In this document: one piece after another, positions 240 to 18,269 of the stretch
How positions within the stretch are numbered: position 1 is the first letter of the stretch
Layout of the letters: each line of letters starts with the position of its first letter
Virus record (IMG/VR): IMGVR_UViG_3300037478_000343
Location: 4,180-68,179 of that record
DNA from: a virus
Length of the DNA: 64,000 nucleotides
Strand: one strand, 5' to 3'
Notes under the pieces: generated by a model
Told to the model about the DNA's origin: nothing
Seen by the model: only the letters and a program-made list of their open reading frames with translations
The model's database searches: none
Position numbers and translations under genes: made by a program

Positions 240-240
240 C

Positions 241-483: not shown

Positions 484-680
484 CTCGCTTCCTCTGATAC
501 CCATTTTGGGGATGTTCGTACCCAATTTGGGTATGTGCTTAGTTTGTATGGGGCAGTTACCCTTCGTAATCCGCTTCAGCCAGCGTGTCCGGCTTGTCGT
601 TGTGTATTGGGCACGTCTCGCTCACAAGAGCGGCACCGCTTTCTGGCTCCGGGTTTTCGCAATCGCAAATCATTTCGTTG

Positions 681-1680
681 TCAATAATGTCCATGCTGCT
701 CGCACCACAGCCGGAACTTGGCCGTTTCCAATGGCTCTAAGTCGGTCCACCCGAGAGGCCACCCCATGAGCCACTCGACCCACGTCGGGTTCAGCGAGCC
801 ACCAACTTGTGTTTGCAAGTTCTCGCCGCCTTCGCGGCCCTGTGAGCCCGGACCCGTGCTGCAATTCGCGTGAGGTGTCGCCCAATTCACTGCCCGGCCG
901 AGTTCGTTTCCGCTCGGCCCGTTGCTCTTGCCGTCCGGACTGAACCCGTGTGGCGTCGGCCACAACCTCACCGCGGATTCCAGACCGAGCTGAACCTTCT
1001 TTCCCTTGTGATAGAACGTCCCGCCGATCTGCTCCGCGTGCGCCACGGACCGACCGCCGTTCGGCACGTTCGGAGTCGGCCATAGGTTGAATCTCGCCAT
1101 CGCTCCGAGTGTTGGTCGTAGAGCCGCGCCCTCGCTCGCGCTCCGGTTGAACATGCTCCCGGTATCCACTGTCGCTGGCGTAGGCAATACACCACCATCG
1201 ATCGCGGCGATGCGGAGCTCCTGTTTCGGCAGCGGATAGCCGACGCCATCGACAGTCATACCCGCTATCGGCCAGGTCCCCGAATATTCGTCTTGCGTAT
1301 TCGTGAGCAAGCAAACCTGGGACGTTCTCCAGGAGCGCGAATCGCGGTCGTACTGCGCGAATGACACCGATGGTTTCTGGCCACATATTGCGCGCGTCAG
1401 ACTCGCCTCCGCCCGCTCCAGCGACGCTGAACGGCTGGCACGGGAAGCCCGCGCTGACGACATCAGCCAGGCCCTTATAGCTGTCGGCGTACCCCTCACT
1501 GATGAATGCCCGGATATCGCCGAAGATTGGAGCTTCTGGCAAACAGCAGTCCCTGATCCGGGCGGCGAGGACTTTTTGACAGTAGTCGTCATATTCGACG
1601 TACCCTATCGGCGTCCAGCCAAGCAAATGACTTCCGAGAAGTCCGCCGCCGGCACCGCTGAAAAGGGAAAGTTCATACAA
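681..1680 (-). pseudogene. DNA (cytosine-5)-methyltransferase, reading frame broken near 1140-1175
   Basis: Frame of ORF 670..1680 carries motifs I (FSGAGGG), IV (GFPCQPFSVAG), VI (ENVPGLL) and VII/VIII (LADSGYDCRWRRL...GAPHRRDRWWCIAYAS) up to about 1165, then degenerates into low-complexity junk. Overlapping frame of ORF 681..1592 then carries a typical phage Dcm-like C-terminal part (repeated WPTP motifs, ...NPTWVEWLMGWPLGWTD). TTG start at 1680 with AGAAGG RBS. Confidence 0.65.
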
Positions 1681-1703
1681 CTGTCATTGCCTTCTGTGTG
1701 GAG

Positions 1704-2180
1704 TTACCGAAGCCGCTCGCGCAACAGTTCGGTCTCGCGATCCTTCTTGTTGACCAACTCCGTCAGCCCCTTGACGTGGCTTTCAAGGTCCAGGATGCGT
1801 TCGTTTTTTAGCAGATCGGCAAAGGCGTCAACCAGCTCGTGACGCTTCTGTATGCCTCCTGTTTCAAACAGGCGACCGTGGATCACATCCGACCCTCTGT
1901 CCCGCCCGGTGTAGCCGTACTTTTCGCATCCGAGGTAGCGTCGAAACATTTCCTCGTTCCCCGATAGCATCGACTCTATGGCTCGGTCGGTCATTTCCTG
2001 TACGTAGTACATAAGCTGGTCTGCCAGATCGTCCTTGAGCCACCACTCGACTTTGTCTGCGGCATCGCGGAACAGGCCCTCAATCTGCTCTGCAAGGGGT
2101 TTTACAACGTCCTCTGGCAGTCCTGCATTGAACGTCTCGCGCAGCTTGTCTCGGAATTCGATGTCTCGACTTTCGTTCAT
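1704..2180 (-). CDS. hypothetical protein (158 aa)
   Basis: ORF track. GGGAG RBS upstream of the ATG at 2180. Protein-like composition. Confidence 0.55.
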   Translation of the reverse strand: MNESRDIEFRDKLRETFNAGLPEDVVKPLAEQIEGLFRDAADKVEWWLKDDLADQLMYYVQEMTDRAIESMLSGNEEMFRRYLGCEKYGYTGRDRGSDVIHGRLFETGGIQKRHELVDAFADLLKNERILDLESHVKGLTELVNKKDRETELLRERLR

Positions 2181-2212
2181 TTCGTTAACTCCCTAAACAG
2201 GTCATAGTTCGT

Positions 2213-2533
2213 TCATTCGACCCCAACCACTTCTTCGTCTTCACCCTCGCCGAATATCTCGAACCTAGTTCGCGGAAACAGACAACGTCCATCTTGGCGC
2301 ATGAGGTTCCGAAAGAGACTGGTGCAGTCCCGACAATAATTCGGCTCTCCCGGCCATTGGCGTCGAGCTGGCGGCGGGTGGCCGGTCTCTTTAGACGCAG
2401 CCGCCAGCCAAGCCTCGTATTCGTCCACAGAACCAAAACACGGAGGGTGTTCACCAGCATCTGGGCGGGTGATGGGCTCGTGTTCTTGTCTCTGCACGAT
2501 CATCTCGAGCTTCCTAATTATTGGATCGTCCAT
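2213..2533 (-). CDS. hypothetical Cys-containing protein (about 106 aa)
   Basis: ORF track 2213..2542. ATG at 2533 preceded by a GTGAGA RBS. Overlaps the 3' end of the upstream gene by about 20 nt. Confidence 0.45.
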   Translation of the reverse strand: MDDPIIRKLEMIVQRQEHEPITRPDAGEHPPCFGSVDEYEAWLAAASKETGHPPPARRQWPGEPNYCRDCTSLFRNLMRQDGRCLFPRTRFEIFGEGEDEEVVGVE

Positions 2534-2888
2534 TGATCTCACTGAAGTCCTCGATAGGGATCATGACTTGGGGTATGCCGTCGATGTTTCTCACCGCGTA
2601 CTTCAACCCCGTATGTGGCATGAATGCCTTCCCGAGCATCTTCTTTCCCTTTGCTACGATGCGGAACGGCGTGACCGTGTCTGCCGACAGGGCCTTGACC
2701 ATCAGCCAGCGGGCAATCGGCACGCACACGCATTTGACCTCGTTGAATTCTGCGACTGTCGGTTTTTCGTGAAAACTCAGCCAGCCAGTCAGGGCTTCGT
2801 CGGCGTACACCGCGTGTACGGAAGACGAGTCGCTAGCCTCCGTGTAGAGAACGATCTGCCGCTTCCACGCAGATGACAGTTCCCCCAT
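2514..2888 (-). CDS. hypothetical protein (about 124 aa)
   Basis: ORF track 2514..2918. Internal ATG (MGELSS...) at 2888 has an AGAGGAG RBS 5 nt upstream. Confidence 0.45.
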   Translation of the reverse strand: MGELSSAWKRQIVLYTEASDSSSVHAVYADEALTGWLSFHEKPTVAEFNEVKCVCVPIARWLMVKALSADTVTPFRIVAKGKKMLGKAFMPHTGLKYAVRNIDGIPQVMIPIEDFSEINGRSNN

Positions 2889-2914
2889 GGACTCTCCTCT
2901 ATCTGCGCCCATGA

Positions 2915-3355
2915 TCAAAACGGAATATCGTCGTCGTCAAAGTCCTTTTTTATGTCTCTGGTTTCCTCAGGCTCCTGATCGGATTCCTGGCTGGCCGAAC
3001 GACCACCCCCGCCCGACTTGCCGCCCAACATGATCAGCCCGCCGAAGTTGTCGAGCAGAATCTCGGTGCTGTAGCGCGTGACGCCTTCTTTGTCGTCCCA
3101 CTTGCGGGTTTGCAGCTTGCCCTCGATGTAGACCTGAGAACCCTTGCGGACGTACTCAGCGATGATCTCGGCGGTCTTGCCGAACGCGACACATTTATGC
3201 CACTCGCATTGCTCCTTCACTTCACCGGTGGATTTGTCGGTCCACTTCTCGCCGGTGGCGACGGAAAAGTTTGCAACCGCCTTGCCGTCAGGAAGGAATC
3301 GCGTCTCCGGGTCTTGGCCTAGTCGGCCGATCAGCATGGCTTTGTTCAGGTCCAT
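2915..3355 (-). CDS. ssb: single-stranded DNA-binding protein
   Basis: OB-fold SSB pattern ([11 protein letters not shown]...[11 protein letters not shown]...[14 protein letters not shown]), Gly-rich linker and the canonical acidic C-terminal tail DDDIPF. AAGGAG RBS. Confidence 0.95.
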
Positions 3356-3383
3356 CTACTTGCTCCTTAAATGAATACTTGCA

Positions 3384-4136
3384 TCAGAAGATACGCAGGC
3401 TCTCTGATTCGATGAATTCGGCCCCGCTAATTTCCTTGACGCCCTTCTTCAGCATCAGTTGGGCGAGGGTGTTCAGGCCGGACCTTTTCAGGTCCACGAC
3501 TTGCTCCAGCACGAGACCGTCCAGGTCGTCCAGCGCAGAGGGTAGGGCCGCCAGGAATTGGCGCAGGTTCTTAACCTCAGTGTTGTACTTCTTCGCACTC
3601 GAGGTGGACGAACCGTAGTTGCCTCTCGTCACGCCTACTCTGGCTTTCTCGATCAGCTTTTCGGTGACCTTCGTCGCCTCCTCAAGAACCTCGTTCTGGT
3701 CCTCCTCAGTGGTTTCTGCCTCGGCTTGCGCTAGAGCTTCCTCCTCAAGGCGTCGTGCTTCCTTGGCGGCCTCCTCGCGTAGGCGGGCATCTTCGGCGCG
3801 TTTCCACGTCACCATCTTCCGCTCGACGATGGTGCGTACCTTGTCGAACTCGCCAGTAACCGGCTTGAACGCCTTGTTGATGAGCGTGTACAGGTTGTAG
3901 AACGGGGAGGTTATTTCCTTGCGCAGGTCCTCCGCTTTGCTCCCTTGCGTGCGCGCGATCTTAATCAAATCGCCGCCCTTGGCGTATGACTCCGAGTCCG
4001 TGACCTCGGCCCTGTCGGCCTGCGCGATCAGGTTGTTCGCGGTCTCCTGAAATTCCGCAAGCGCTACCTGTAGCCGTCCGACTTTCTCGGCGGTCGGAAG
4101 CCCGGTGGTGGAAATTGTTACTGCTTTGCTCGTCAT
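3384..4136 (-). CDS. coiled-coil protein of the recombination module (possibly Gp157-like)
   Basis: ORF track 3384..4202. ATG at 4136 (MTSKAV...) has a GAGAGG RBS and overlaps the stop of the YqaJ-like gene. Long Glu/Ala/Lys/Arg coiled-coil segment. Sits between ssb and the exonuclease/recT pair. Confidence 0.55.
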   Translation of the reverse strand: MTSKAVTISTTGLPTAEKVGRLQVALAEFQETANNLIAQADRAEVTDSESYAKGGDLIKIARTQGSKAEDLRKEITSPFYNLYTLINKAFKPVTGEFDKVRTIVERKMVTWKRAEDARLREEAAKEARRLEEEALAQAEAETTEEDQNEVLEEATKVTEKLIEKARVGVTRGNYGSSTSSAKKYNTEVKNLRQFLAALPSALDDLDGLVLEQVVDLKRSGLNTLAQLMLKKGVKEISGAEFIESESLRIF

Positions 4137-4146
4137 GTCTGGCCTC

Positions 4147-4836
4147 TCAAAACAGGGACGGGATGCCGTCCAGTTCGTTTGCGTACTCTGGTCGTTCATC
4201 ATTGACCAGCATATGATTTATCTGCACCAGTCGTTCGTAGAACCGCGCCTGCATGCCCTCGTCAAGTGGAACGTCCTCCTGGTGTAGCTGCTCCAGCGGC
4301 TTTGCCTCCGGATGGAAGCTGACGAACCTTATCTTTGGCCGGCCAGTGACAAATGCCTCGAACTGAACCTGTACGAAGTACTCCCACATGCACTGCTTCA
4401 CGCCAAATCTAAGCAGGTCTTTGTGCCTATCCAGAATCAGCGGGCACTTCACCTGCCCGGTCGTGTCGTCACCCTCAAAAAAGTCTGGGGTTGCGCTCGC
4501 GATGTCGAATGTGGGGTGAATAAACATGCCGGGGTTGATCTGCACCTTGCCGGTGGTAAACCGCAGCATGTCGTACTCACGGATGGCGCGCTCCTCGTAG
4601 GCGTGGCCATGCTCGAAGGCGGCGCACGTCGCTCCATCGACTGCCGGCTTCGTCAGTTCCTCCGCCATCTCGTCCAACATCCGACCGATCGTGGCGGGGC
4701 GACCGTACATTATCTTGTACGCACGGTCAGAGGCCGTGATGCGACCGCGCCGAGCGTCCATCCAAATCGGCGTGTTCTGCGGAATCCCCTTGGCCGGGTC
4801 CTTCGGCTTGTACAGTAGGCTGAAGTCGTACTTCAT
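4147..4836 (-). CDS. YqaJ-like viral recombinase-type exonuclease
   Basis: PIWMDARRGRITASDRA...AFEHGHAYEERAIREY matches the YqaJ/lambda-exonuclease family signature. Immediately downstream of recT, as in Sak/RecT-YqaJ modules. Start taken at Met-59 of track ORF 4147..5010. Confidence 0.8.
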   Translation of the reverse strand: MKYDFSLLYKPKDPAKGIPQNTPIWMDARRGRITASDRAYKIMYGRPATIGRMLDEMAEELTKPAVDGATCAAFEHGHAYEERAIREYDMLRFTTGKVQINPGMFIHPTFDIASATPDFFEGDDTTGQVKCPLILDRHKDLLRFGVKQCMWEYFVQVQFEAFVTGRPKIRFVSFHPEAKPLEQLHQEDVPLDEGMQARFYERLVQINHMLVNDERPEYANELDGIPSLF

Positions 4837-4867
4837 GACCGGCGCCCAATAAGAACGACCGAAACAA

Positions 4868-5986
4868 TCATCCCTTTTTGCCTTTGCTGGTCGCCTTACC
4901 CCGCGGCTCCTTGGCCGCGGGCTTAGCGCTTTCCTTCGCGCCCTCCGGGGGGTCGCCCCCCTCCTCAGCATTCTGTTTCGCGGCCTCGTTGACCTTTTTT
5001 TGCCGGTCAAGCAGCTTGGCTTCGATTTCTTCGAAGTAGCGAACCGGAATTTTCTTCAGGCTGTTGGTCTTGTACGTCTCGGCTACCTTCGCCGGTGCGA
5101 GCCCCTGCGTATTACACAGGTCACGTATTCTCTTGGCCTGCTCGTCCGATATTTTCTCGCCCATATCGGCACGTAGAGATTCCTCGTCAATCGCCGACGC
5201 CTGCTCGTTGGCCTCGGCCTCGTTGTCGATATGGACTGCCGTCTGCAGACGCTTATAGGCTTCGCCATCCGACACCGGCCACTGTTTGTAGCCGCGCTTG
5301 ATGCCGCTCTTTTTGGACATCTCTCCGGGCCACGTGACCCACGGTCCGCTCGGTTTCCGTTTGGGGTCGCGTGGATTGAATGCGTCACTGGCGCGGGCAA
5401 CAGTCAGTATCTCGCCGATGTCCATCACGGTGATATGCGGGTTCGGTGCGTCCCGTAGCTGCGCGATGCAGTAGACGCCGATCATGCGGTTGCGCTCTCC
5501 GTTTACGAGGTCGATAACGCGCTCCTCACGCGGCGCAAACAGCTTCGGCTTGTGTTTCAGGTACGGAGTGCTACCGAGGTCCACGTCGAACGTGTCCTCC
5601 TCGCAGAGAAACACCACGTCGGCCCTGATGTTCGAAATTACGCCGGTGTCGGTCGCCAGCTTCATCAGTCCTCGGTACTGGGGGGAGGCGGTGCATTCGA
5701 CTCGGTTACGCTTCGAGTTCCACCGCGGCAGAAGCGCCGCCTGCTGGCCGGCCGGATTCAGGCTCAGGCCCATCGCGGCCAGGTTGACGAACGCATCCTT
5801 GATGGTCTCCGGGTCGCACTCCAGTAGCTTCTCGTTGTTCGAGATGGCCTGCAGCGCGAACCGCGCCTCGTTGTTGTAGTCGAGGAGCTTGTGCGTGTTC
5901 TGCGCGTTGAACTTGCGCTTCGCATCCCGGATGGCAAGAGCCGCCTTCTCTCGGGCCTGCGGTTTGGCGACGACCTTGTTTGCCAT
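4868..5986 (-). CDS. recT: RecT-family single-strand annealing recombinase
   Basis: Central RecT core (GLSLNPAGQQAALLPRW...YRGLMKLATDTGVISNIRADVVFLCEEDTFDVD...) with a Lys/Glu-rich C-terminal tail. GGGGAG RBS. Confidence 0.9.
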   Translation of the reverse strand: MANKVVAKPQAREKAALAIRDAKRKFNAQNTHKLLDYNNEARFALQAISNNEKLLECDPETIKDAFVNLAAMGLSLNPAGQQAALLPRWNSKRNRVECTASPQYRGLMKLATDTGVISNIRADVVFLCEEDTFDVDLGSTPYLKHKPKLFAPREERVIDLVNGERNRMIGVYCIAQLRDAPNPHITVMDIGEILTVARASDAFNPRDPKRKPSGPWVTWPGEMSKKSGIKRGYKQWPVSDGEAYKRLQTAVHIDNEAEANEQASAIDEESLRADMGEKISDEQAKRIRDLCNTQGLAPAKVAETYKTNSLKKIPVRYFEEIEAKLLDRQKKVNEAAKQNAEEGGDPPEGAKESAKPAAKEPRGKATSKGKKG

Positions 5987-6624
5987 GTCTCTCCCCTGCG
6001 AAAATTAGAGCGGTTGGCCAAGTTTGATATAAAGGGCGACCGCGACTACCCTTACATGTTTCCCCGGTGACCTCCGGAGCCAGCTGATTCAGTGTCTCTA
6101 CGGTCCCCACCGATCTACTGGTGAGCTTTGTTCCGTCTCGGAGACAAGGCGTCTGAAATGTACGCCCAGCTGGAGCATGGTTTGGACGATACCCGCTAGA
6201 ATCAGGTGCGTCTACAACTTGCCGATTTTATTTTCCGGTCGCGGAGTGTACCAGAGTTTGCCCGGTCAACTTCGTTGCCGAAACGGTGGCGGAGCGGTGG
6301 CCGTATGTTTGGGAAATGTGGTTTCATGCTCGCCGCGAACGAGAGGGCGAACTCGATAAAAAGCGCAGGTAGGGGTCGGGAGCGCCTTAGCTTTCGGTCT
6401 GGGGACGCCGAATAGAACCCCAGAGCCGCCGTGCGGCCAGCTTCCTAGAAACCACTTTAACAAAGTGCGTCTAGGGGGTAAGGGGGCCGCTGTGCCGCCA
6501 GGGAGGCGATAACTACTGAATAGTAAGACAACAGACTCAGGTATTAAGTTAAATTGCGCCCGAGTTTCGCGAGTTCTGTAAGGTCGGGCATTTCAGGCAT
6601 TTCAGAAATCGGAGTAAGATTCTT

Positions 6625-6942
6625 ATGTCCACATGTTACGTCTACTTCATCCAGGAAGCTCCGCGCGGCTCAATAAAAGTTGGCATGTCAAGCGATCCAG
6701 AGAAACGTCTGAAGACTTTGCAGACCGGCGCCCACAAAAAATTACGGCTGATCGCTCGGTTCCCATTCCAATGTCGGCAGGAGGCACATACGGTGGAGCA
6801 AGAGATTCACCGTAAATTCTCCCACTTACGACTGTCCCAAGGCGAGTGGTTCAAGCGGACGATCCTGAAAGAGATGAAGCAGGGACGGAAACGTGTAATC
6901 GGTGGGTCCTACGAGAATCCGACAGTAACCACCCCGTCTTGA
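6625..6942 (+). CDS. T5orf172 / GIY-YIG-like domain protein
   Basis: YVYFIQEAPRGSIKVGMSSDPEKRLKTLQTG...EQEIHRKFSHLRLSQGEWF is the characteristic T5orf172 (MUG113-like) pattern. First gene of the rightward operon. Confidence 0.65.
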   Translation: MSTCYVYFIQEAPRGSIKVGMSSDPEKRLKTLQTGAHKKLRLIARFPFQCRQEAHTVEQEIHRKFSHLRLSQGEWFKRTILKEMKQGRKRVIGGSYENPTVTTPS

Positions 6943-6995: not shown

Positions 6996-9509
6996 ATGCA
7001 ACTGTTCGACTACCAGAGCCGTGTTCTCGACGACGTGCGCTACGCCATCCGCGGAGGCGCACGCTCGATCTTAATGGTGCTCCCGACCGGTTCAGGAAAA
7101 ACGGTCTGCGGTGCCCACATGATTCATTCCGCTGAGTCGAAAGGCAACCCGACGCTATTCACCGCGCATCGGCGCGAGCTGGTGAACCAGACCGTCGACA
7201 AGTTGCAACGTTTCGGCGTACAGCATGGGACGATCATGGCCGGCAAGACGCCGTCCCTTTGGCATGGCGTGCAGGTTGCCAGCGTCGATACTTTGCGGGC
7301 TCGCTGCATGAGCCCACGCAAGAAGATGGAATTGCCACGCGCATCTATCCTGATGGTGGACGAAGCGCACCGGTCCTGCAGCCCGACCTACACGAAGCTG
7401 ATCGACCATTACCGTAAGGACTCGCTGGTGATTGGGCTCACGGCTACGCCGATTCGCGGCGACGGCAAGGGCCTTGGCCGCCACTACGACGAGATGGTTG
7501 TCGGACCCACGGTGCAAGAACTGATCGACATGGGGCGCCTGGTACAGCCCAAGTATTTCGTGCCGAGCATTCAGGACCTGACTGGCGTGCCTATCGCGAA
7601 GGGCGACTACGTCGAGAAGCACCTCGGCAACATCATGGGCACGAAAGAGGTGATCGGCGACGTCGTGGAGCATTACGGCAAGCTTGGCGAGGGCCCGGCC
7701 TTGCTGTTTGCGCCAGATGTGAAGTCGTCCATCGGCTACATGGAAGCATTCAATCGTGCTGGCATTTCTGCGGCTCATATTGATGCGTCCACGCCAGCGG
7801 ACGAGCGCGACCGCATCATCGCAGGACTCCTTGGCGGCCGGTTCGATGTTTGCTGCAACGTAATGGTGCTTTGCCTTGACACCGAAACCGAGATTCTCAC
7901 CGACCGAGGATGGACAAACTACCGGGAAATGACCAAGCAGCACAAGGTGGCTAATTGGGAAGGCGGTCGCGTGTGGTTTGAGGGGCCGCAAGATGTGGTC
8001 GTGAGGGACCGAGATCCAAGTGAGCGCATGTTCTCCATAGAGACGCGCAAGAAAAGCATCCGGGTTACCTCAGGGCATAGGATGCTGTACAGAACGAAGC
8101 ACGGAGGACGGTTCCTCAAATGCCCCGTGGACGAACTTGAAGGACGAAGCGTGCAGCTTCCGATTACCGGTCGCATTGATATAGAGCCCGCTGAAGTCAC
8201 ATTGGACGAATGTATGTTCGCGGGGTTCTTTGTTGGCGATGGCTCAAGGTGCCAACTACAGAGAGGAGGTGTCGAGTACGTTGTTTCTCAGAGCTTCGCT
8301 TATCCGAAGATAATTGCATGGTTCGATGCGCTGATTCTCAGGTGCGGTCTGCATTGCGTGCGAAAGGAGAGGGCATACGCAGTCAAATTCGTGCGCTGGA
8401 GCTTCTGCCGCGGAACCGGCGGAAAATCACAGAAACGCAACGGTGGCGTGGCTCGTCTAGAGTGGCTGCTGGACAAATCTTGCTCCTCCATCAGTAGTTT
8501 GAGCGCCTCTCAGTTCGAGGCGTTTATGCATGGTCTCTGGATGGCCGACGGCAACCACGGAGATGGCGCGACTCCAGTCAAGAACAAATATATAACCTCC
8601 TGCAACAAGTACATGCTAGACAACATTCAGGCCGCAGCCACTGTTCGCGGCATGCGGGTGTCGCTGTCTTCTGAGATTCTTCCACGTAAGGCAAACCACC
8701 GGTCGCAATGGACCCTATCGTTCTGCCATAGAGATTACTGCTCCACGAGCTGCTCTGAGTTTAAGGCAGAGAACATCTGGCGCCCAGAGAAGGTCTGGTG
8801 CGTCAAGACCACGTCAAAAAACATCATCACCAGGCGGCAAGGCAAGGTTGTTGTCATGGGCAACACCGAGGGCTTCGACTGTCCACCAGTGCGCACCATC
8901 ATCATGTGCCGACCAACCCGAAACATCGGTTTGTATTTGCAGATCGGCGGTCGGGGCCTGCGCACGTCGGACGGAAAGGACTCCTGCATAGTCATCGACC
9001 ACTCTGGGAGCGTGTACGAGCACGGCCTGCTGGAATGGGACCACGAGTGGAAACTGACCGATGCCGAGGGCTGCGAGTCTCGCGAGGAGCGCCAGAAAAA
9101 GCTGGACGAGAAGAAGCCTATAACCTGCGTCCAGTGCTCCCATGTGTATACCGGCCAGCTTATCTGTCCCAACTGCGGACACATGCCGAAGAAGCACGGA
9201 AAAATTGTCGAGAGTCGCCAGGCCGATCTGGTTGAGTTACGGACCCTGGCGCGCCAGAAAAAGGAGCGCAAAGACAAGCCCCGAGAGTACACGAAGGAGG
9301 AGAAGCAGCTGTTCTTTTCCATGGCGCTCCAGTACGCCGCTGACAGAGGACACAAAGATGGTTCAGTGGCTTGGAAATTCAAAGACCGCTTTGGCCACTT
9401 CCCTCAAGACATGCAGAGGATACCGACAGAGCCTTCACCGGAATTCATGCGGTTCATCCAGCACCTGAATATTAAAGCCGCCTACCGCCGGAAGAAGGAA
9501 GCGGCATGA
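6996..9509 (+). CDS. SF2 DEAH-box DNA helicase with C-terminal zinc ribbon, interrupted by an intein (extein about 506 aa)
   Basis: Walker A LPTGSGKT, motif II MVDEAH, motif III GLTATP, motif V split as VMVL|...|TEGFDCP, C-terminal CVQCS...CPNCGH zinc ribbon. A 331-aa insertion separates the two halves of motif V. Confidence 0.85.
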   Translation: MQLFDYQSRVLDDVRYAIRGGARSILMVLPTGSGKTVCGAHMIHSAESKGNPTLFTAHRRELVNQTVDKLQRFGVQHGTIMAGKTPSLWHGVQVASVDTLRARCMSPRKKMELPRASILMVDEAHRSCSPTYTKLIDHYRKDSLVIGLTATPIRGDGKGLGRHYDEMVVGPTVQELIDMGRLVQPKYFVPSIQDLTGVPIAKGDYVEKHLGNIMGTKEVIGDVVEHYGKLGEGPALLFAPDVKSSIGYMEAFNRAGISAAHIDASTPADERDRIIAGLLGGRFDVCCNVMVLCLDTETEILTDRGWTNYREMTKQHKVANWEGGRVWFEGPQDVVVRDRDPSERMFSIETRKKSIRVTSGHRMLYRTKHGGRFLKCPVDELEGRSVQLPITGRIDIEPAEVTLDECMFAGFFVGDGSRCQLQRGGVEYVVSQSFAYPKIIAWFDALILRCGLHCVRKERAYAVKFVRWSFCRGTGGKSQKRNGGVARLEWLLDKSCSSISSLSASQFEAFMHGLWMADGNHGDGATPVKNKYITSCNKYMLDNIQAAATVRGMRVSLSSEILPRKANHRSQWTLSFCHRDYCSTSCSEFKAENIWRPEKVWCVKTTSKNIITRRQGKVVVMGNTEGFDCPPVRTIIMCRPTRNIGLYLQIGGRGLRTSDGKDSCIVIDHSGSVYEHGLLEWDHEWKLTDAEGCESREERQKKLDEKKPITCVQCSHVYTGQLICPNCGHMPKKHGKIVESRQADLVELRTLARQKKERKDKPREYTKEEKQLFFSMALQYAADRGHKDGSVAWKFKDRFGHFPQDMQRIPTEPSPEFMRFIQHLNIKAAYRRKKEAA
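7872..8864 (+). mobile_element. intein with LAGLIDADG homing-endonuclease domain, inserted in helicase motif V
   Basis: Starts with Cys (CLDTETEILT, block A), TSGH block B, two LAGLIDADG-type motifs (MFAGFFVGDGS and FMHGLWMADGNHGDG), ends ...KVVVMGN followed by Thr+1 (TEGFDCP). Removing it restores a contiguous helicase motif V. Penultimate residue is Gly rather than His. Confidence 0.75.
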
Positions 9510-9913
9510 AGCGTCGCTATCGCATCTCCATCCGGATCAACGGCAAGCGCGTCTACACGAAGCTGTACCGACGCTGGATGGATATGAAGGGCCGCACGAA
9601 AGGCCACTCGACCCGATCACCGCACTTGTACGACGGCCTTGATCTCCACTGGACATCCTTCGCGGAGTTTCGTTCGTGGGCGCTGGTGAACGGGTTCAGC
9701 AAGGGAACGTCGTCTCCTGATAGAAAAGATGCTGATAAGGGCTACGTGCCGGGCAATGTGAAGTTCGTCCCGTGTGTCGAAAACTACTCATCCCGCCGAA
9801 GCTGGCAGCACATGAGCGACTACGCCGTGCGCGGCGATGAGCCGCCCGAGCCCAAGCACGGACCTCATTGTTCGTGCGAATTTTGCGCGGACTATTGGGC
9901 GGCCACGGCATGA
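9506..9913 (+). CDS. HNH-family endonuclease-like protein (phage homing-endonuclease-type)
   Basis: Pattern KLYRRWMDMKGRTKG...YDGLDLHWTSFAEFRSWALVNGF...DRKDADKGYVPGNVKFVPCVENYSSRR resembles the common phage HNH (HNH_3-like) free-standing endonuclease family. ATGA overlap with the helicase stop. Confidence 0.5.
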   Translation: MKRRYRISIRINGKRVYTKLYRRWMDMKGRTKGHSTRSPHLYDGLDLHWTSFAEFRSWALVNGFSKGTSSPDRKDADKGYVPGNVKFVPCVENYSSRRSWQHMSDYAVRGDEPPEPKHGPHCSCEFCADYWAATA

Positions 9914-14315: not shown

Positions 14316-15135
14316 TAGGGGTCGCGAAACGATCTGCGGACGGATGTCGGTAACGTTCGCCGCGAAGGACGGTGATGCGACTTGCGGTGTGTGCCGGTCG
14401 ATGGCGACGAACGGAAACCTTGAGAAGCTACGGCTGAACGACTCCAAGGAGAAGTTTCCCGGCGCCAACCAGAGCGGCAATCCCCGCATGACGGACCTGC
14501 AGAAGGCATTTGCAGCTCATCCTCTGGTGACGACCAACCCACGTCGCGCGGCGATTGAGGTTGGTTACAGCGAGTCCTACGCAGAGGATCACGCGCACGC
14601 GCTCAGGAAGCAGTTGTCGTTCGCCATTATCGCGAACCAGGAGGAGGCCAGGAAGCTATCTGCAATTTCGGCTGCTCGAGTGCAGCAGGAGCTTGCATCG
14701 ATGGGATTTGCAAATATTTTGGATTACTACGATGTTTGCGCTGAGACCGGGGAAGCCACCCCGAAGCAACTGAACGAACTGACGCGCGAGCAAGCGGCGG
14801 CCGTTCAGGAGGTAGAGATGTTGGAAATCGAGGATGCTGATGGCACTAAGAGAAAGGTGCTGGGGCGCATCAAGCTCACGGACAAGCGTGCGGCATTGGT
14901 TGAACTGGGAAAAACCATTGGACTTTTCAACAAATTTACCATTGAGGACCGCCGGCAGAACACGCTAGACCTTGAGCAGGTACCTACCGAGGACCTTGAG
15001 AAGGTCGAACGGTACCTGTTGAACGCCGCCCGCAAGACGCGGGACAAGATCGACAATCATGAGGCCATACCTGGCGAATACGCCGAGGCCGGGACATTAC
15101 TAGAGGGGCCACAGGATGGCGGTCAAGAAAACTGA
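14281..15135 (+). CDS. terS: terminase small subunit (Terminase_2 / P27-like); start uncertain (14281-14488)
   Basis: MTDLQKAFAAHPLVTTNPRRAAIEVGYSESYA...KLTDKRAALVELGKTIGLF matches the Terminase_2 small-subunit pattern, including the conserved C-terminal KLxDKxxALELLGKxLGxF-like segment. Confidence 0.75.
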   Translation: MAAAKKHIRHPSRGRETICGRMSVTFAAKDGDATCGVCRSMATNGNLEKLRLNDSKEKFPGANQSGNPRMTDLQKAFAAHPLVTTNPRRAAIEVGYSESYAEDHAHALRKQLSFAIIANQEEARKLSAISAARVQQELASMGFANILDYYDVCAETGEATPKQLNELTREQAAAVQEVEMLEIEDADGTKRKVLGRIKLTDKRAALVELGKTIGLFNKFTIEDRRQNTLDLEQVPTEDLEKVERYLLNAARKTRDKIDNHEAIPGEYAEAGTLLEGPQDGGQEN

Positions 15136-16300
15136 TTTAGATGGACTGGATCAATTCTGTACAAACGACGGGCAGAAGGCACTGCTTGCTGCAATTCGAG
15201 AATCCCGAACGCACAGGGAGGCCGCCAACAAGCTCGGGACTACCGAGAGAAACGTAGCCTACAAGCTCCAGAGACTGCGAGAGAAGGCTGCAAAGGCCGG
15301 ATACTCCCCGCAGCACGACATGACCAAGACGACTCCCGAGGGATTTAGCGTCAAGGGCACATCGACGCTCTACGATCCAGGCGGCGTGGTCAAGCTGCAG
15401 TGGGTCAAGACGCAGCGCGATCAGGAACTGCGGCAAGAGATCATGCGGCAGTTCGTGGAGGAACTGAGCGACACCGTGACACCCCGTAAACGCATCGCGC
15501 TCGGCAAGAAATCTACGGCCAAGGATCTGATGGTTGGCTACCCCATAGGCGATCATCACTGGGGCATGTACGCATACGCCGCGGAGACCGGCGGCGACTA
15601 CGATTGCAAGATCGCGAAGAAGGTCCTTGCAGACGCGGTAGACAATCTCGTGGACGCGGCCCCTGCGGCCGAGACAGCCCTTCTCGCGAACTTGGGCGAT
15701 TACCTGCACATGGATAACCGATCGAACGTAACTCCGGCCAGCGGGCACATGCTGGACGTTGACACGCGATACAGCCGCGTCATTCGCTTGGCGGCCTTCG
15801 GGTTGGCCCATTCCATAGAGAGGCTTTTGGAGAAGCACAAGCGTGTTCGAATGGTCAATGTTCCCGGTAATCACGATCAAGACTCCGCTTCGTGGCTGTC
15901 TCTTGTGATGCAGGCGTATTTTCGCAACGAGCCACGCGTCGAGATAGATATGTCTCCGGCTGTGTTCCTGTTTTACCGCTTCGGCGCCAACATGATATGC
16001 ATGACGCACGGTCATACCGTGAAGCTGGAAAACCTACCCAGCATCATGGCGAGCCTGCAACCCCAAATGTGGGGAGAGACCACATACCGCGTTGGATGGA
16101 CCGGCCACGTCCATCACAGCCAGACGGTCATTGGCAAGGAGAATCATGGTGCTGTCGCCGAGTCTTTTGGTGTTCTCGGGCCGTGCGACGCCTACAGCGC
16201 ATCCAGGGGCCACGGTGCCCGGCGGGAGATGAATGCGATTACCTTCAAAAGAGACGGCGGCATCAAGTGTCGCGCCACATACAACGCCGACTTGCCATGA
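15116..16300 (+). CDS. HTH domain fused to a calcineurin-like metallophosphoesterase
   Basis: N-terminal sigma70-r4/LuxR-like HTH (THREAANKLGTTERNVAYKLQRLR), then metallophosphoesterase motifs GDHHWG, GDYLHMDN, GNHD, MTHGH, GHVHH in the canonical order. GAGGGG RBS. Overlaps the terS end. Confidence 0.7.
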   Translation: MAVKKTDLDGLDQFCTNDGQKALLAAIRESRTHREAANKLGTTERNVAYKLQRLREKAAKAGYSPQHDMTKTTPEGFSVKGTSTLYDPGGVVKLQWVKTQRDQELRQEIMRQFVEELSDTVTPRKRIALGKKSTAKDLMVGYPIGDHHWGMYAYAAETGGDYDCKIAKKVLADAVDNLVDAAPAAETALLANLGDYLHMDNRSNVTPASGHMLDVDTRYSRVIRLAAFGLAHSIERLLEKHKRVRMVNVPGNHDQDSASWLSLVMQAYFRNEPRVEIDMSPAVFLFYRFGANMICMTHGHTVKLENLPSIMASLQPQMWGETTYRVGWTGHVHHSQTVIGKENHGAVAESFGVLGPCDAYSASRGHGARREMNAITFKRDGGIKCRATYNADLP

Positions 16301-16644
16301 GCGCGCCTTTGGATGCAAAGGTTCGCAAGAACCTGCCATTGTGGCGAGGCTTTCTGCGCTACTTCCCGGATGCGTCGCTCGCGGTGGCGAAGCTGTCCTT
16401 GATCGGGAACGAGCAACACAATCCTGGGGAGGAACTGCACTGGGCGCGTGGCAAGTCCATGGACCAATACGACTGCCTCGCTCGCCATCTGCTGGACGCC
16501 GACCTACTCGACTCCGATCTTGTGCCGCACGCAGTCAAGGTCGCATGGCGCGCCATGGCCGGCCTACAGACTTACCTTGAGCAGAATCCGTGGGACACGT
16601 CCGTTGAGGAGTGCCTTGCGGCAGCGAAGAAGGGGAATGACTGA
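16297..16644 (+). CDS. DUF5664-like protein (resembles the N-terminal domain of phage dATP/dGTP diphosphohydrolases)
   Basis: PLWRGFLRYFPDASLAVAKLSLIGNEQHNPGEELHWARGKSMDQYDCLARHLLDADL... pattern recalled from that family. ATGA overlap with the upstream stop. Assignment by memory of the motif only. Confidence 0.45.
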   Translation: MSAPLDAKVRKNLPLWRGFLRYFPDASLAVAKLSLIGNEQHNPGEELHWARGKSMDQYDCLARHLLDADLLDSDLVPHAVKVAWRAMAGLQTYLEQNPWDTSVEECLAAAKKGND

Positions 16645-16853
16645 TGCCGCCCATCTACGAATATGTGTGCGAAGACTGCGATTCGGTGTTCTCTATCCTG
16701 ACGACCTTCGATCATCGCAGGGACGCACAGATATGTCCGAATTGCGAATCGCGGGACAACCATCCGATCTTGTCTCCGACCAGAACCACCTTCAAATTCG
16801 CTGACAGATGTGCAGAGAAGCGCATACGGGCCCCCAAGGAGAAACGGCGATGA
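16644..16853 (+). CDS. FmdB-family zinc-ribbon protein
   Basis: MPPIYEYVCEDCDSVF...ICPNCES: classic FmdB CxxC...CxxC ribbon. ATGA overlap with the upstream stop. Confidence 0.55.
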   Translation: MPPIYEYVCEDCDSVFSILTTFDHRRDAQICPNCESRDNHPILSPTRTTFKFADRCAEKRIRAPKEKRR

Positions 16854-17500
16854 AAGAACTGGATCGCATAGGCGTCGAGGATGACGCTTGGATGATGACC
16901 GCTCTTGGCGGCGCGGTTTACTTTCTGAGGCCGGCCGACTCCGACATAAACATTGAGGCAGTAGCCCTGCACGCGGGCAAGCTGTGTCGGTGGGGCGGTG
17001 CTGTATCGAGATTCTACTCTGTTGGGCAGCACCAATGCATGGTTGGGACATTGATCCAGCGCCAGCTTGATGCCGATGGCATTTCGGATGCCACAGAGGA
17101 GTACTGGGACCAGATACTGGCCGGCCTTTTGCACGATGGCGGCGAGTCATTCACAAATGACGTCGTCAGCCCGCTCAAGCACATCATGGGGGGCAAGTAC
17201 GATTGGATCGAGACCGGACTGGTTCGTGAGCTATTCCACCGCTACGGGGTGGACTGGGCCTACTACAACCAGACCGTGAACGACGCCGACAGGCTTGCAT
17301 CCGAGATCGAGCGCACGTTTCTTCTGCCCGATCATCCGCGGTTCCCAAAGAAGGACCCGGCAACACTGCCGTACCGGATTGAAAAAGAAGATTGCTGGGG
17401 TCCGGACGTTGCCGGCGACAAGTACCTTCAGGCCGTCAGGTACGTTATGGAAAGGCGCAAGCAGACCAGAATTGAGGGTCGAAATGCAACGTCTGGTTGA
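16850..17500 (+). CDS. HD-domain phosphohydrolase
   Basis: H...(ALHAGK)...QH...LLHDGGESF...D arrangement typical of HD-superfamily hydrolases (YfbR/5'-deoxynucleotidase-like). AAGGAG RBS. ATG overlaps the upstream stop. Confidence 0.6.
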   Translation: MKELDRIGVEDDAWMMTALGGAVYFLRPADSDINIEAVALHAGKLCRWGGAVSRFYSVGQHQCMVGTLIQRQLDADGISDATEEYWDQILAGLLHDGGESFTNDVVSPLKHIMGGKYDWIETGLVRELFHRYGVDWAYYNQTVNDADRLASEIERTFLLPDHPRFPKKDPATLPYRIEKEDCWGPDVAGDKYLQAVRYVMERRKQTRIEGRNATSG

Positions 17501-17678
17501 CTGGAGCACTGCATACGTCACAAGGGCGCGCATGTGGATATTCAGCGGCCACTGGCGCGCTGTGTCACGGTACGCGATTAACGTACGGTTCCTGGAATGC
17601 GTGCGATGCAGGGATGAGGAGAACGCGCGGGCCGTAGCTGAGATTCACAACAGCTCGCGCGGTTTGTGGAGTTTCTAG
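17484..17678 (+). CDS. hypothetical small protein (64 aa)
   Basis: In-frame ATG with GAGGGT RBS. Overlaps the 3' end of the HD gene. Confidence 0.3.
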   Translation: MQRLVDWSTAYVTRARMWIFSGHWRAVSRYAINVRFLECVRCRDEENARAVAEIHNSSRGLWSF

Positions 17679-17938
17679 GCGGCTATGTCGCCCGTGCGCG
17701 GGTCTTTTGCCCACTCGAATTCCTGGCCCTCGTCTTCGTGGTGCGGGACAAATCCCGGGTCGTCGAGGAATTTCTTCAGGTGTGCGTTATTGAGCGCGAG
17801 CCTGTGCAGGCGCTCGTAGAGGCATGGCAGCACTGCATCGTGCGGTATGAAGCCACCTTTCGCCCTTTGGATCTGTAGTTCGTTCTCTGCGGTGATGATG
17901 TGGATCAGTTGCTTGGCGTTGTCCGTGAGTACGGTCAT
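17675..17938 (-). CDS. hypothetical protein (87 aa)
   Basis: ORF track. GGGGA RBS 7 nt upstream of the ATG. Convergent with the plus-strand cassette. Confidence 0.45.
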   Translation of the reverse strand: MTVLTDNAKQLIHIITAENELQIQRAKGGFIPHDAVLPCLYERLHRLALNNAHLKKFLDDPGFVPHHEDEGQEFEWAKDPRTGDIAA

Positions 17939-18037: not shown

Positions 18038-18066
18038 TAAAAAAAGACCCGGACTCGCCGGGCCTT
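18038..18066 (-). terminator. rho-independent terminator of the leftward small-gene operon
   Basis: Minus-strand reading: CCCGG-CGAGT-CCGGG hairpin followed by TCTTTTTTT, directly downstream of the gene ending at 18084. Confidence 0.45.
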
Positions 18067-18083
18067 TGAGAGTGATGGGTTTT

Positions 18084-18269
18084 TCACTGGGCATTTGGTA
18101 ATGGTGGCTGATCGGACGTGAATGCGTACGTTGGGTCCTCCGGGATCAGTTCCGCAATTTTGTCGACCTCTCTTTGCAGATCCTGCAGCTTTTGTCTCAG
18201 CTCGATAATTACGTCTCCCTTGATGTAGTAGTAAGCATCGGCCTGTAGGGTTGTTTTTGTTGGTCCCAT
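18084..18269 (-). CDS. hypothetical protein (61 aa)
   Basis: ORF track, followed by the terminator. Confidence 0.4.
   Translation of the reverse strand: MGPTKTTLQADAYYYIKGDVIIELRQKLQDLQREVDKIAELIPEDPTYAFTSDQPPLPNAQ

Follow-up and report, generated by a model that had tools for sequence, protein, structure and literature searches.

Does the run of overlapping genes that begins with a terS-like gene in this virus encode the steps of a single pathway, and on what would its enzymes act? Within the 64,000-nucleotide stretch of DNA that was analysed (hereafter, the window), six co-directional genes overlap one another (Table 1). A preliminary description, made from the DNA letters and their open reading frames, had proposed either nucleotide-pool remodelling or counter-defence as their role.

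Table 1. Genes of the block, with positions in the window and the basis of each assignment
Feature	Position	Strand	Basis
terS-like gene (Terminase_2)	14344..15135	+	Pfam PF03592, phrog_51
HTH-metallophosphoesterase, 394 aa	15116..16300	+	phrog_704, motifs, structure model
DUF5664 / dGTP_diPhyd_N protein, 115 aa	16297..16644	+	PF18909, phrog_27780
FmdB-type zinc-ribbon protein, 69 aa	16644..16853	+	PF09723 Zn_ribbon_8
HD-domain phosphohydrolase, 216 aa	16850..17500	+	phrog_318, PDB profiles, motif
64-aa protein, last operon gene	17484..17678	+	ORF, pN/pS

Gene structure and coding evidence

Gene boundaries were identical in an independent gene call on a public contig carrying the same sequence (L013, offset 6849), which starts the terS-like gene at 14344 within an ORF that opens at a TTG (14275). 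The conserved block opens with this gene, whose final 20 nt (stop codon 15133–15135) overlap the metallophosphoesterase (MPE) gene, which begins with the ATG at 15116. ATGA overlaps join the MPE and DUF5664 genes (16297/16300) and the zinc-ribbon and HD genes (16850/16853), while the DUF5664/zinc-ribbon junction at 16644 is a TGATG with a one-base overlap and the HD and 64-aa genes share 17 nt (17484/17500). Four of the five starts have a Shine-Dalgarno-like purine run ahead of them. The chain of five ORFs beside terS was therefore found as first described, with every junction in place. Its tight operon structure had also been called unusual, but start/stop overlaps by themselves are nothing special here: most neighbouring genes of the genome overlap by 1–4 nt. 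Instead, the block rises above chance because it is conserved and replaced slot by slot in relatives. Its genes are all genuinely coding, the 64-aa ORF included, given pN/pS values of 0.12–0.30 in the annotated frames against an 85%-identical relative (L002).

Predicted functions of the block proteins

The family assignments of the preliminary description were borne out, by Pfam for the terS-like, DUF5664 and zinc-ribbon proteins and by PHROGs, conserved motifs, a structure model and PDB profile matches for the MPE and HD proteins. The terS-like protein matched Terminase_2 (PF03592; 2.4e-16, 61 bits, cut-off 26, profile positions 1–136 of 141) and phrog_51 (8e-16), and its gene had a pN/pS of 0.16 against L002. 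No second terS was recognisable in the window, and terL lies 17 kb away (32548–34194).

The MPE has an N-terminal helical HTH region (approximately residues 1–60), a beta-rich linker and a catalytic domain (approximately residues 135–394). It matched phrog_704 (6e-111) and was not called by Pfam itself (the Metallophos score of 16 bits falls short of the 21.5 cut-off). All catalytic motifs are retained, and the nearest structural neighbours of the model are nucleases (Mre11, SbcD and the PolD-DP1 exonuclease). Motifs and model together suggest that the protein is probably a Mn/Mg-dependent DNA exonuclease or phosphodiesterase.

Membership of the third gene product in the DUF5664 family is secure on sequence grounds (PF18909, 1.9e-7, 31.4 bits, cut-off 27; phrog_27780, 1.3e-27). 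Among 798 homologues at 55–68% identity, every subfamily-invariant residue is kept in the window protein, including N38, H41, H48-W49, D56, R63-H64, D72, D74 and H78. The AF2 model is all-alpha (pLDDT 91.5), and no solved structural neighbour was found for it. DUF5664 on its own has been shown to act as a dNTP pyrophosphohydrolase: the standalone protein of Arthrobacter phage Wayne converts dATP, dUTP and dGTP to dNMPs in a Mn2+ assay (PMC12884076). The window protein, which is only ~22% identical to the Wayne enzyme, is predicted to convert dNTPs to dNMP and PPi.

The HD protein matched phrog_318 (7.7e-31) and, as a single sequence, the PDB entry for Atu1052 (2gz4, 4e-9). The profile of its family matched Atu1052 (3e-36), OxsA (2.5e-5) and YfbR (8.6e-4), and did not match DatZ (E 0.69); the Pfam YfbR-like and HD models were not matched by the window protein itself. 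Its invariant residues (H61, H95-D96, E99, D104 and D147) form an H...HDxxE...D pattern. By these profiles and residues, it is a member of the YfbR/OxsA/Atu1052 deoxynucleotide phosphohydrolases, and is predicted to be either a 5'-deoxynucleotidase (dNMP to deoxynucleoside and Pi) or a stepwise dNTP phosphohydrolase. A homologue fused to a dNMP kinase domain in another locus (L062) points to dNMPs as the ligand.

The zinc-ribbon protein combines a CxxC...CxxC motif with a basic C-terminal tail (PF09723, 1.8e-10, 41.1 bits, cut-off 34.4; gene pN/pS 0.23 against L002). The 64-aa protein had no Pfam or PHROG match; it is 80% identical in L002, with a pN/pS of 0.30 in its own frame versus 1.3–1.9 in the other frames, and the stop of its gene overlaps that of a convergent gene (17675–17938, minus strand).

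Conserved order and replaced slots in related phages

The order terS, MPE slot, DUF5664, (small genes), zinc ribbon and HD is kept in the window and in eight related loci (L002, L007, L008, L010, L011, L012, L024 and L025), and reaches down to ~45% (43–47%) identity between HD proteins. Homologues of the terS-like protein are encoded ahead of the MPE or A1 slot in L002 (92% identity), L007 (66%) and L008 (54%). Part of this synteny simply reflects common descent in a single phage lineage. Co-occurrence of all five downstream genes, which the preliminary description had suggested surveying, extends to the ordered core and not to the last gene: the 64-aa gene is absent from L007, and in L008 and L010–L012 small genes of other, unrelated kinds come after the HD gene. 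The 64-aa protein is probably peripheral rather than part of the core module. The zinc ribbon is conserved in all eight loci, and in this lineage its gene is always immediately upstream of the HD or DUF4406 slot. It is a conserved companion of the proposed HD step, possibly regulatory or nucleic-acid binding.

Individual slots are occupied by unrelated proteins. In L008 and L025, a true homologue of phage T5 A1 replaces the phrog_704 MPE (phrog_1745, 1.6e-131; 29% identity to T5 A1 over 473 aa, E 1e-53). In L002, an NDT-like DUF4406 protein (PF14359, 6e-14; phrog_355) stands exactly at the position of the HD gene, and the DUF5664 slot holds a different DUF5664. Breakpoints in DNA similarity between the window and L002 fall at gene boundaries, and between the two swapped slots only the zinc-ribbon segment keeps similarity (16641–16854, 81%).

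The combination also recurs more widely. A DUF5664 gene lies within 1.2 kb of the HD gene, on the same strand, in 9 of 79 metagenomic HD loci, and DUF5664 matches in these 79 loci numbered 9 in 130 kb near the HD gene versus 1 in 302 kb elsewhere. An MPE gene adjoins the HD gene in at least eight loci (including L066, L039, L065, L068, L082, L085 and L062, and weakly L098, where the order is DUF5664, HD and an HTH-MPE-like gene). The MPE-DUF5664-HD arrangement is repeated in unrelated phage contigs with a third MPE family (e.g., phrog_221 MPE, DUF5664 and HD in L066, with an NDT-like gene nearby). L016, L017, Vibrio phage 91E28.1a and LIMEzero likewise have MPE and DUF5664 genes near each other, and in Flavobacterium phage elemoA an A1-like gene is directly followed by one for a MazG-like NTP pyrophosphohydrolase. 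Nevertheless, the linkage is facultative: many phages have the phrog_704 MPE without DUF5664 or HD nearby (Avpx2, MPK9, L015), and the HD family is found in ordinary replication modules lacking an MPE (phiKT, R4C, Tunturi_4) and in PSTCR4, where no MPE is annotated within 2.5 kb.

Proposed pathway and alternative explanations

That the combination stays the same while unrelated versions take individual places speaks for a single common pathway of DNA/deoxynucleotide breakdown, not for the destruction of immune signals. We consider it about an even chance that the block is a catabolic module working in series, from DNA and dNTPs to dNMPs and on to deoxynucleosides. The MPE would bind DNA by its N-terminal HTH and, as a two-metal phosphodiesterase or exonuclease, release dNMPs; DUF5664 would convert dNTPs to dNMP and PPi, as its homologue does; and the YfbR/OxsA-like HD enzyme would strip the remaining phosphate(s) to leave deoxynucleosides. 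The block lies in the early/middle DNA-metabolism region of its phage, which is podovirus-like and has no polymerase. Its purpose is less certain than its chemistry, because the phage lacks polymerase and nucleotide-synthesis genes: no DNA polymerase, RNR, thymidylate synthase or dNMP kinase was found in searches covering the window and 3.2 kb beyond it (~7 kb of the longest known contig lies outside them). A phage without these genes that destroyed the whole dNTP pool as T5 does would leave its own replication short of precursors, and this speaks for an activity that is selective or timed. The module could serve to demolish the host chromosome and shut the host off, to remove certain dNTPs or dNMPs selectively, or to get rid of dNMPs sensed by defence systems.

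It is possible, if rather doubtful, that the genes are unlinked neighbours brought together by the usual clustering of DNA-metabolism genes. The MPE would then serve the phage's own DNA end processing, recombination or repair/proofreading in the manner of Mre11, SbcD or DP1, while DUF5664 and HD independently sanitise or bias the dNTP pool (dUTP, dITP, excess dATP/dGTP) for the host polymerase. In phages of very different kinds, the phrog_704 MPE has replication and recombination genes as neighbours (after a 5'-3' exonuclease and endonuclease VII in LIMEzero, in a nin-like region in MPK9), HD homologues adjoin genes for helicase, primase, DNA polymerase or dUTPase in the three phages with MPE-free replication modules, and in Xp10, SnaR1 and P12053L DUF5664 comes after a gene for a DnaQ-like or Cas4 exonuclease. 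Gentle pool editing is also more plausible than pool destruction in a phage without nucleotide-synthesis genes. However, the A1 homologues share the MPE slot, and the adjacency of MPE to DUF5664-HD or HD recurs with at least three unrelated MPE families on independent contigs, enriched near HD relative to the rest of the loci. Moreover, genes for recombination are already present in the window, namely those for a RecT/exonuclease pair, SSB, a VRR-NUC nuclease and endonuclease VII.

We regard it as improbable that DUF5664 and HD, like MazZ and DatZ, destroy one of the canonical dNTPs and thereby let a non-canonical dNTP into the DNA. Z-genome phages do pair the YfbR-like HD enzyme DatZ with DUF550 ± DUF5664 (MazZ), or DUF5664 with the NDT-like DmtZ and DutZ (PMC12884076), and L002 encodes DUF5664 and an NDT-like protein. 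Yet the latter is not similar to Wayne DmtZ-DutZ, the HD profile does not reach DatZ, and neither PurZ, whose absence from the window the preliminary description had already stated, nor a DNA polymerase or recognised modified-base synthesis gene was found in the window and the 3.2 kb beyond it. Of the two roles first proposed, nucleotide-pool enzymes are favoured by the HD and DUF5664 families and by the swaps, whereas hydrolysis by MPE and/or HD of the signalling nucleotides of CBASS, Pycsar, Thoeris or type III CRISPR gained no supporting evidence for cyclic-nucleotide degradation and appears very improbable. DNA, dNTPs or dNMPs are the substrates of all the nearest families; the swapped-in A1 homologue, NDT-like DUF4406 and other DUF5664 variants, together with the dNMP-kinase fusion, indicate deoxynucleotide chemistry; the HD protein lacks HD-GYP or PDE-type architecture; and no known anti-signal protein appeared in the Pfam or PHROG results for the block. 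Known anti-signal proteins have other folds (Acb1, 2H; Apyc1, MBL; Tad1/2 and Acb2, sponges). It is more improbable still that the HD protein is mainly a non-enzymatic modulator of host replication. The prophage-encoded YfdR, a structural YfbR homologue, has poor nucleotide affinity and binds DnaA, and overexpression of the yfdQRST cluster inhibits initiation at oriC (PMC4776307). In the HD family, by contrast, metal-binding and catalytic residues are all invariant, and a catalytic role is further favoured by its repeated pairing with dNTP pyrophosphohydrolases and by the NDT-like enzyme that can take its place.

Comparison with known systems

All parts of the block belong to already known families; the catalytic residues are intact, the order is conserved, and the combination recurs with unrelated versions in individual slots. 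The MPE resembles Mre11/SbcD and the PolD DP1 exonuclease at the level of the fold only (12–20% identity), with an N-terminal HTH in place of any detected Mre11 capping or DNA-binding domain and with no Rad50/SbcC partner gene in the window. The HD protein has its catalytic pattern in common with E. coli YfbR, Bacillus OxsA and Agrobacterium Atu1052, albeit at low identity. With the Z-genome and PurZ0 phages (PMC12884076), the locus shares a DUF5664-family dNTP pyrophosphohydrolase and a small YfbR-like HD protein, or an NDT-like enzyme in L002. Unlike them, the window lacks PurZ, PurZ0 and DpoZ, its DUF5664 is standalone and of a different subfamily, and the block includes an MPE and a zinc ribbon.

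For the degradation of host DNA by T5, the A1 protein is both required and sufficient, and Dmp turns dNMPs into nucleosides (bioRxiv 10.64898/2026.04.02.716235). The window MPE has no detectable sequence or profile similarity to A1, and the HD protein is unrelated to Dmp (phrog_415), so that the parallel is an analogy by position and superfamily only. The block adds a predicted dNTP pyrophosphohydrolase and a zinc ribbon, and the phage has neither an A2 homologue nor two-step DNA injection, nor the genes for polymerase and nucleotide synthesis that T5 depends on. As in the pre-early A1 and Dmp pair, however, one operon combines an MPE-superfamily protein with a predicted dNMP-dephosphorylating enzyme, the predicted flow runs from DNA through dNMPs to deoxynucleosides, and a true A1 homologue is present in two relatives. 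The module may thus be a non-orthologous analogue of A1/Dmp that resembles dNTP-pool editing of the DatZ/MazZ type without PurZ.

Coordinates of features in the window and in comparison sequences
Sequence	Feature	Position	Strand	Remark
Window	RecT/exonuclease/SSB recombination module		-	
Window	Helicase, HNH, primase, VRR-NUC		+	Before cassette
Window	T5orf172/MUG113 gene	6625-6942		Just 5' of helicase gene
Window	HNH endonuclease gene	9506-9913		Between helicase and primase genes
Window	terS-like gene	14275/14344-15135	+	Terminase_2
Window	MPE	15116-16300	+	394 aa
Window	DUF5664	16297-16644	+	115 aa
Window	Zinc ribbon	16644-16853	+	69 aa
Window	HD hydrolase	16850-17500	+	216 aa
Window	64-aa ORF	17484-17678	+	No family
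Window	87-aa gene	17675-17938	-	Convergent with 64-aa gene
Window	Terminator-like hairpin	18043-18067	-	
Window	Neighboring gene	18084-18269	-	
Window	Convergent small-gene block, then terL, portal, virion genes	32548-34194 (terL)		After cassette
Window	ORFs directly 5' of terL	31713-32291, 32269-32547		
Window	Giant virion-associated protein	54624-61607		2327 aa, LPD38
L008	T5 A1 homologue	2696-4135		Uncultured window relative
L025	T5 A1 homologue	2-427		Uncultured window relative
L016	DUF7220/phrog_4276-DUF5664 pair	3698-4487		Metagenomic phage
L017	DUF7220/phrog_4276-DUF5664 pair	5965-6607		Metagenomic phage
L020 (elemoA_15-9B)	A1-like gene and MazG-like gene	4776-6739		Overlapping
L021 (Xp10)	DUF7220/phrog_4276-DUF5664 pair	3477-4759		33aL-33L
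L062	HD-dNMP kinase fusion	26-1222		398 aa
L062	phrog_221-type MPE	1290-2090		After fusion
L066	Exonuclease-HNH-MPE-DUF5664-HD	1566-6170		Overlapping genes

Genomic context and organization of the cassette

The window represents a phage genome (~57% GC) whose DNA genes include an endonuclease VII besides helicase, primase, SSB, RecT/exonuclease and VRR-NUC. The HNH and T5orf172/MUG113 genes probably represent mobile nucleases that inserted into the replication module. DNA polymerase, PurZ, RNR, thymidylate synthase and dNMP kinase were not matched among the larger window ORFs profiled, nor did they appear in precomputed Pfam tables for the contig plus 3.2 kb past the window end (~67 kb of the 74.7-kb longest contig), and the phage presumably relies on host polymerase and host dNTP supply. 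A viral contig collection searched with the HD protein returned nothing, a genome contig collection searched with terL yielded no prophage relative, and at the DNA level the phage collection gave only a 100-nt match, to LIMEzero.

The cassette is, as proposed in the preliminary description, a chain of overlapping co-directional ORFs. The junctions read, in order, as overlaps of 20 nt, ATGA, TGATG, ATGA and 17 nt, and the same genes were called independently on a public contig carrying the window sequence (L013). The tight operon structure had also been considered unusual; such start/stop overlaps are the rule throughout the genome, making tightness by itself uninformative. All cassette genes are under purifying selection (pN/pS against the close relative L002), and the 64-aa ORF has an in-frame pN/pS of 0.30 against L002, compared with 1.3-1.9 in the alternative frames. 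This ORF and the convergent 87-aa gene share 4 nt at their stops (17675-17678), leaving no intergenic spacer between the converging units. Between two minus-strand genes there is a strong hairpin resembling an intrinsic terminator (10-bp stem, 6 GC pairs, T-run), such that the 87-aa gene is downstream of the terminator. Scanning 11-25 kb for promoters and terminators yielded no more sites than shuffled sequence.

The terS-like gene matches the small-terminase profile strongly (Terminase_2, PF03592, 61 bits) and is the only recognisable terS, but instead of adjoining terL, as would be expected of a packaging gene, it sits in the early/middle operon, 17 kb upstream. The ORFs directly 5' of terL gave no terS signal, and no significant match in the window was found to the terS of the isolate closest by terL, Roseobacter phage CRP-902.

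Predicted functions of the cassette proteins

The HTH-metallophosphoesterase (MPE) matches phrog_704 ("DNA repair exonuclease") over its full length (6e-111). Homologues occur in 2055 phage records (among them T1-like, Jersey-like, Kagunavirus, Dhillonvirus, Webervirus, Vibrio and Campylobacter phages), where their annotations disagree with one another. The Pfam Metallophos score is 16.1 bits, under the 21.5 cut-off. The calcineurin-like superfamily (PF00149) is defined by DxH / GD / GNH[DE] / H / GH / GxH motifs on a beta-sandwich fold, and the protein belongs there by its two-metal motifs, invariant in 35 homologues (D146-x-H148, G194-D195, G251-N252-H253, H298-G299, G330-H331-x-H333), and by a model that matches MPE structures. 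This AlphaFold model (pLDDT 83.5) comprises a helical N-terminal HTH region and an MPE domain. The protein falls outside the Mre11/SbcD nucleases, which pair an MPE nuclease domain with a capping domain and act with an adjacently encoded Rad50/SbcC ATPase: no capping domain was detected, and the window has no Rad50/SbcC gene. PDB sequence searches with the MPE and with DUF5664 gave nothing useful. We also compared the MPE with T5 A1, whose family is defined by sequence homology to T5 A1 over a ~450-aa core. Only the GNHD motif was aligned, non-significantly (BLASTP E 0.23 against T5 A1 and 0.64 against the A1-like protein of L008; hhalign probability 0.2%), and the homology claim was therefore dropped. 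The window also encodes a giant LPD38 protein. In two related metagenomic contigs (L016 1-2496 and L017 1-4804), a phrog_704 MPE is the next gene after one of comparable size (831 aa in one, 2756 aa and LPD39-bearing in the other), a position that differs from that in the window.

The DUF5664 protein passes the PF18909 (dGTP_diPhyd_N) gathering score (31.4 versus 27 bits) and belongs to a highly conserved subfamily (798 homologues, 55-68% identity), retaining 27/27 invariant columns of a 37-sequence alignment. Its confident model is all-alpha and had no match in the PDB by Foldseek, which gave no evidence of a MazG-like fold. In work from 2026 (PMC12884076), gp51 of Arthrobacter phage Wayne, a standalone DUF5664 protein, converts dATP, dUTP and dGTP to dNMPs, so the domain is catalytic by itself; conversion of dNTP to dNMP + PPi has been demonstrated only for gp51 and for a fusion protein of SH-Ab 15497 (PMC12884076). 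On the basis of its sequence, the window protein is predicted to be a dNTP pyrophosphohydrolase, the activity shown for Wayne gp51. A second recurrent partner of DUF5664 is a small DUF7220/phrog_4276 protein, encoded immediately 5' of it in Xp10 and two metagenomic phages.

The HD protein itself has no Pfam match at E ≤0.1, whereas PF12917 (YfbR-like) is recorded on its distant homologues P0008 and P0010. It matches phrog_318 and the PDB protein Atu1052, and its family profile retrieves Atu1052 (3e-36), OxsA (2.5e-5) and YfbR (8.6e-4). The H...HD...D site and the HDxxE glutamate (H61, H95-D96, E99, D147) are invariant in the family. Against the dATP triphosphohydrolase DatZ (6zpa) the profile gave a non-significant E of 0.69, and no PurZ was found in ~67 kb, which sets the protein apart from DatZ. 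No similarity to T5 Dmp was detected; Dmp falls in phrog_415, and the label "dNMP phosphatase" of phrog_318 does not derive from T5. The zinc ribbon is FmdB-type (PF09723, 41.1 versus 34.4 bits; CxxC...CxxC cysteines C9, C12, C31, C34) and is a conserved companion of the proposed catabolic module.

Conserved gene order and slot replacement among relatives

Five loci of the same lineage (L007, L008, L010, L011, L012) carry HD homologues (44-68% identity) in the gene order of the window, and the same cassette order was found in L024 and L025 by the metagenome scan. The common order is terS, MPE slot, DUF5664, variable small genes, zinc ribbon, HD and a small gene. A survey of gene co-occurrence, suggested earlier, shows the order kept in eight related loci, L002 included, with the MPE, DUF5664 or HD slot swapped in L002, L008 and L025. 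The close relative L002 is a mosaic. Its MPE is 91% identical to that of the window, and DNA similarity extends to the MPE end (16303), is lost over DUF5664, returns exactly over the zinc ribbon (16641-16854), is lost again over HD and resumes at the 64-aa gene (17490). In L002, the DUF5664 slot holds a different DUF5664 (PF18909, 1.9e-23) and the HD slot a DUF4406/NDT-like protein (PF14359, 6e-14; phrog_355, "nucleoside 2-deoxyribosyltransferase"). The MPE slot of L008 and L025 is occupied by a phrog_1745 protein (1.6e-131), the family that T5 A1 itself matches at 8.5e-244. This protein is a genuine T5 A1 homologue (29% identity over 473 aa, E 1e-53) and belongs to the A1 family. The slots each accept a different protein of the same predicted substrate class.

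Clear A1 homologues were also seen far outside Demerecviridae, in the jumbo Xanthomonas phage XacN1, Caulobacter phage phiCbK, Flavobacterium podoviruses (elemoA), the Rhizobium T7-like phage RHph_Y1_20 and the uncultured window relatives L008 and L025. A1 has been described as predominantly Demerecviridae-associated (2026 preprint).

Recurrence outside the lineage

We scanned 79 metagenomic loci encoding more distant HD homologues (~30% identity). DUF5664 was located within 1.2 kb of HD on the same strand in 9/79 loci, and DUF5664 matches numbered 9 in 130 kb near HD compared with 1 in 302 kb elsewhere. MPE genes of other families adjoin HD in at least eight loci, among them L039, L065, L068, L082 and L085, where the gene beside HD is a Pfam-positive Metallophos gene. 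The unrelated phage contig L066 encodes an exonuclease, HNH, MPE (phrog_221), DUF5664 and HD in overlapping genes, followed at a distance of 1 kb by an NDT-like gene. In L062, a YfbR-like HD is fused to a dNMP kinase domain (Pfam DNMK, 2e-11), a fusion that links the HD family to dNMPs, and an MPE follows. Locus L098 has the order DUF5664, HD and an HTH-MPE-like gene, the last a weak match (hhalign E 0.002) in which the catalytic motifs align. MPE and DUF5664 lie close together in L016, L017, Vibrio phage 91E28.1a and LIMEzero. In elemoA, an A1-like gene runs into the start of the gene for a MazG-like NTP pyrophosphohydrolase (phrog_671, 1.6e-27), so that an A1-type MPE is independently paired with a dNTP pyrophosphatase. 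DUF6378 (L065) and DUF3310 (L068), encoded between MPE and HD genes, were considered as hidden DUF5664 relatives without significant matches.

Candidate roles of the module

Protein families, slot swaps and recurring adjacency point to DNA and deoxynucleotide chemistry. The preliminary description had left the choice between nucleotide-pool remodelling and counter-defence by degradation of signalling nucleotides; these same lines of evidence favor deoxynucleotide chemistry, and nothing in the analysis supports a breakdown of cyclic-nucleotide immune signals. The anti-signalling proteins Acb1, Apyc1, Tad1/2, Acb2 and ring nucleases, which cleave or sequester cyclic (oligo)nucleotides, have 2H-phosphoesterase, MBL, sponge or CARF-type folds, and none of these families was found by Pfam, PHROG and structure searches, which place all cassette proteins elsewhere. 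Because neither PurZ nor a recognised modified-base synthesis gene was found in ~67 kb, base exclusion for a modified genome is also unlikely.

In terms of chemistry, we favor a serial catabolic module, at roughly even odds, since the slots tolerate replacements of the same predicted substrate class. The MPE would degrade DNA to dNMPs, DUF5664 would convert dNTPs to dNMPs (as shown for its homologue), and HD would turn dNMPs, or dNTPs stepwise, into deoxynucleosides. The main rival, to which we give distinctly less credence, is that the cassette genes are mere neighbors in a DNA-metabolism region, the MPE serving phage DNA transactions while DUF5664 and HD sanitise the dNTP pool. Counter-examples to the association include phrog_704 MPE alone (Avpx2, MPK9, L015), A1 alone (a Rhizobium T7-like phage), DUF5664 after other nucleases (Xp10, SnaR1, P12053L) and the HD family in replication modules without MPE (phiKT, R4C and, beside a dUTPase, Tunturi_4); in PSTCR4, too, no MPE is annotated within 2.5 kb of the HD family gene. 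The recurring adjacency near HD and the swaps within a predicted substrate class weigh on the side of the serial module.

The purpose of such a serial module is less certain than its chemistry. T5-style wholesale destruction of the pool would hurt a phage that carries neither polymerase nor nucleotide-synthesis genes, and the module must therefore be selective or timed in its action. Speculatively, dNMP disposal could erase an alarm signal, since a preprint (PMC12871103) shows that the PUA-Cal-HAD defence is triggered by m6-dAMP set free when phage infection breaks down the chromosome; T5, despite Dmp, is still restricted by this system (PMC12871103).

A broader proposal, which we regard as fairly unlikely, is that many unrelated phages carry a modular DNA-to-nucleoside disposal pathway of interchangeable, non-orthologous parts. 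These may comprise an MPE nuclease (phrog_704, T5-A1-type or phrog_221), a dNTP pyrophosphohydrolase (DUF5664 or MazG-like) and an enzyme that destroys dNMPs (YfbR-like HD or NDT-like). If so, T5 A1 would have a functional counterpart in the HTH-MPE of >2000 phage genomes (T1-like, Jersey-like, Webervirus, Kagunavirus and others), and the downstream enzymes would exceed pool editing by erasing the dNMPs that chromosome demolition leaves, such as m6-dAMP, the alarm signal for at least one defence system (PUA-Cal-HAD). 

That a real A1 homologue is exchangeable with the widespread, unstudied phrog_704 HTH-MPE gives a concrete, testable function to a protein in thousands of genomes, among them those of therapeutic T1-like, Jersey-like and Klebsiella phages. 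A further suggestion is that dNTP/dNMP catabolism is a common modular phage trait, which could interact with defences depleting or sensing deoxynucleotides.

Comparison with known systems

T5 A1 is a predicted metallophosphatase, necessary and sufficient for host-chromosome degradation, after which Dmp turns dNMPs into nucleosides (bioRxiv 10.64898/2026.04.02.716235). As the window MPE is not detectably related to A1 and its HD is unrelated to Dmp, the parallel with T5 is non-orthologous. Z-genome clusters combine PurZ/PurZ0 with DatZ/MazZ, and usually DpoZ, a combination not seen in the window phage; the earlier statement that this is not a Z-genome cluster agrees with the lack of an adenylosuccinate synthetase match among profiled proteins or Pfam tables (~67 kb). 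Two proteins of phage Wayne were also compared. Gp52, encoded between DUF5664 and DmtZ-DutZ, has no cysteines and is not a zinc ribbon, and DmtZ-DutZ has no similarity to the L002 DUF4406 protein.

Until now, host-DNA degradation coupled with nucleotide disposal has been regarded as peculiar to T5, and pool editing by DUF5664/HD as a speciality of Z-genome phages; the locus described here and its relatives present the same logic from different families, in a small phage without polymerase or PurZ. In the literature searched, three features appear undescribed: the combination of MPE, DUF5664, (zinc ribbon) and HD, the modular non-orthologous replacement of cassette slots, and the positional equivalence of the phrog_704 HTH-MPE with T5 A1. 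The components nonetheless all come from described families, and T5 A1/Dmp and DatZ/MazZ with DUF5664 are precedents for the logic.
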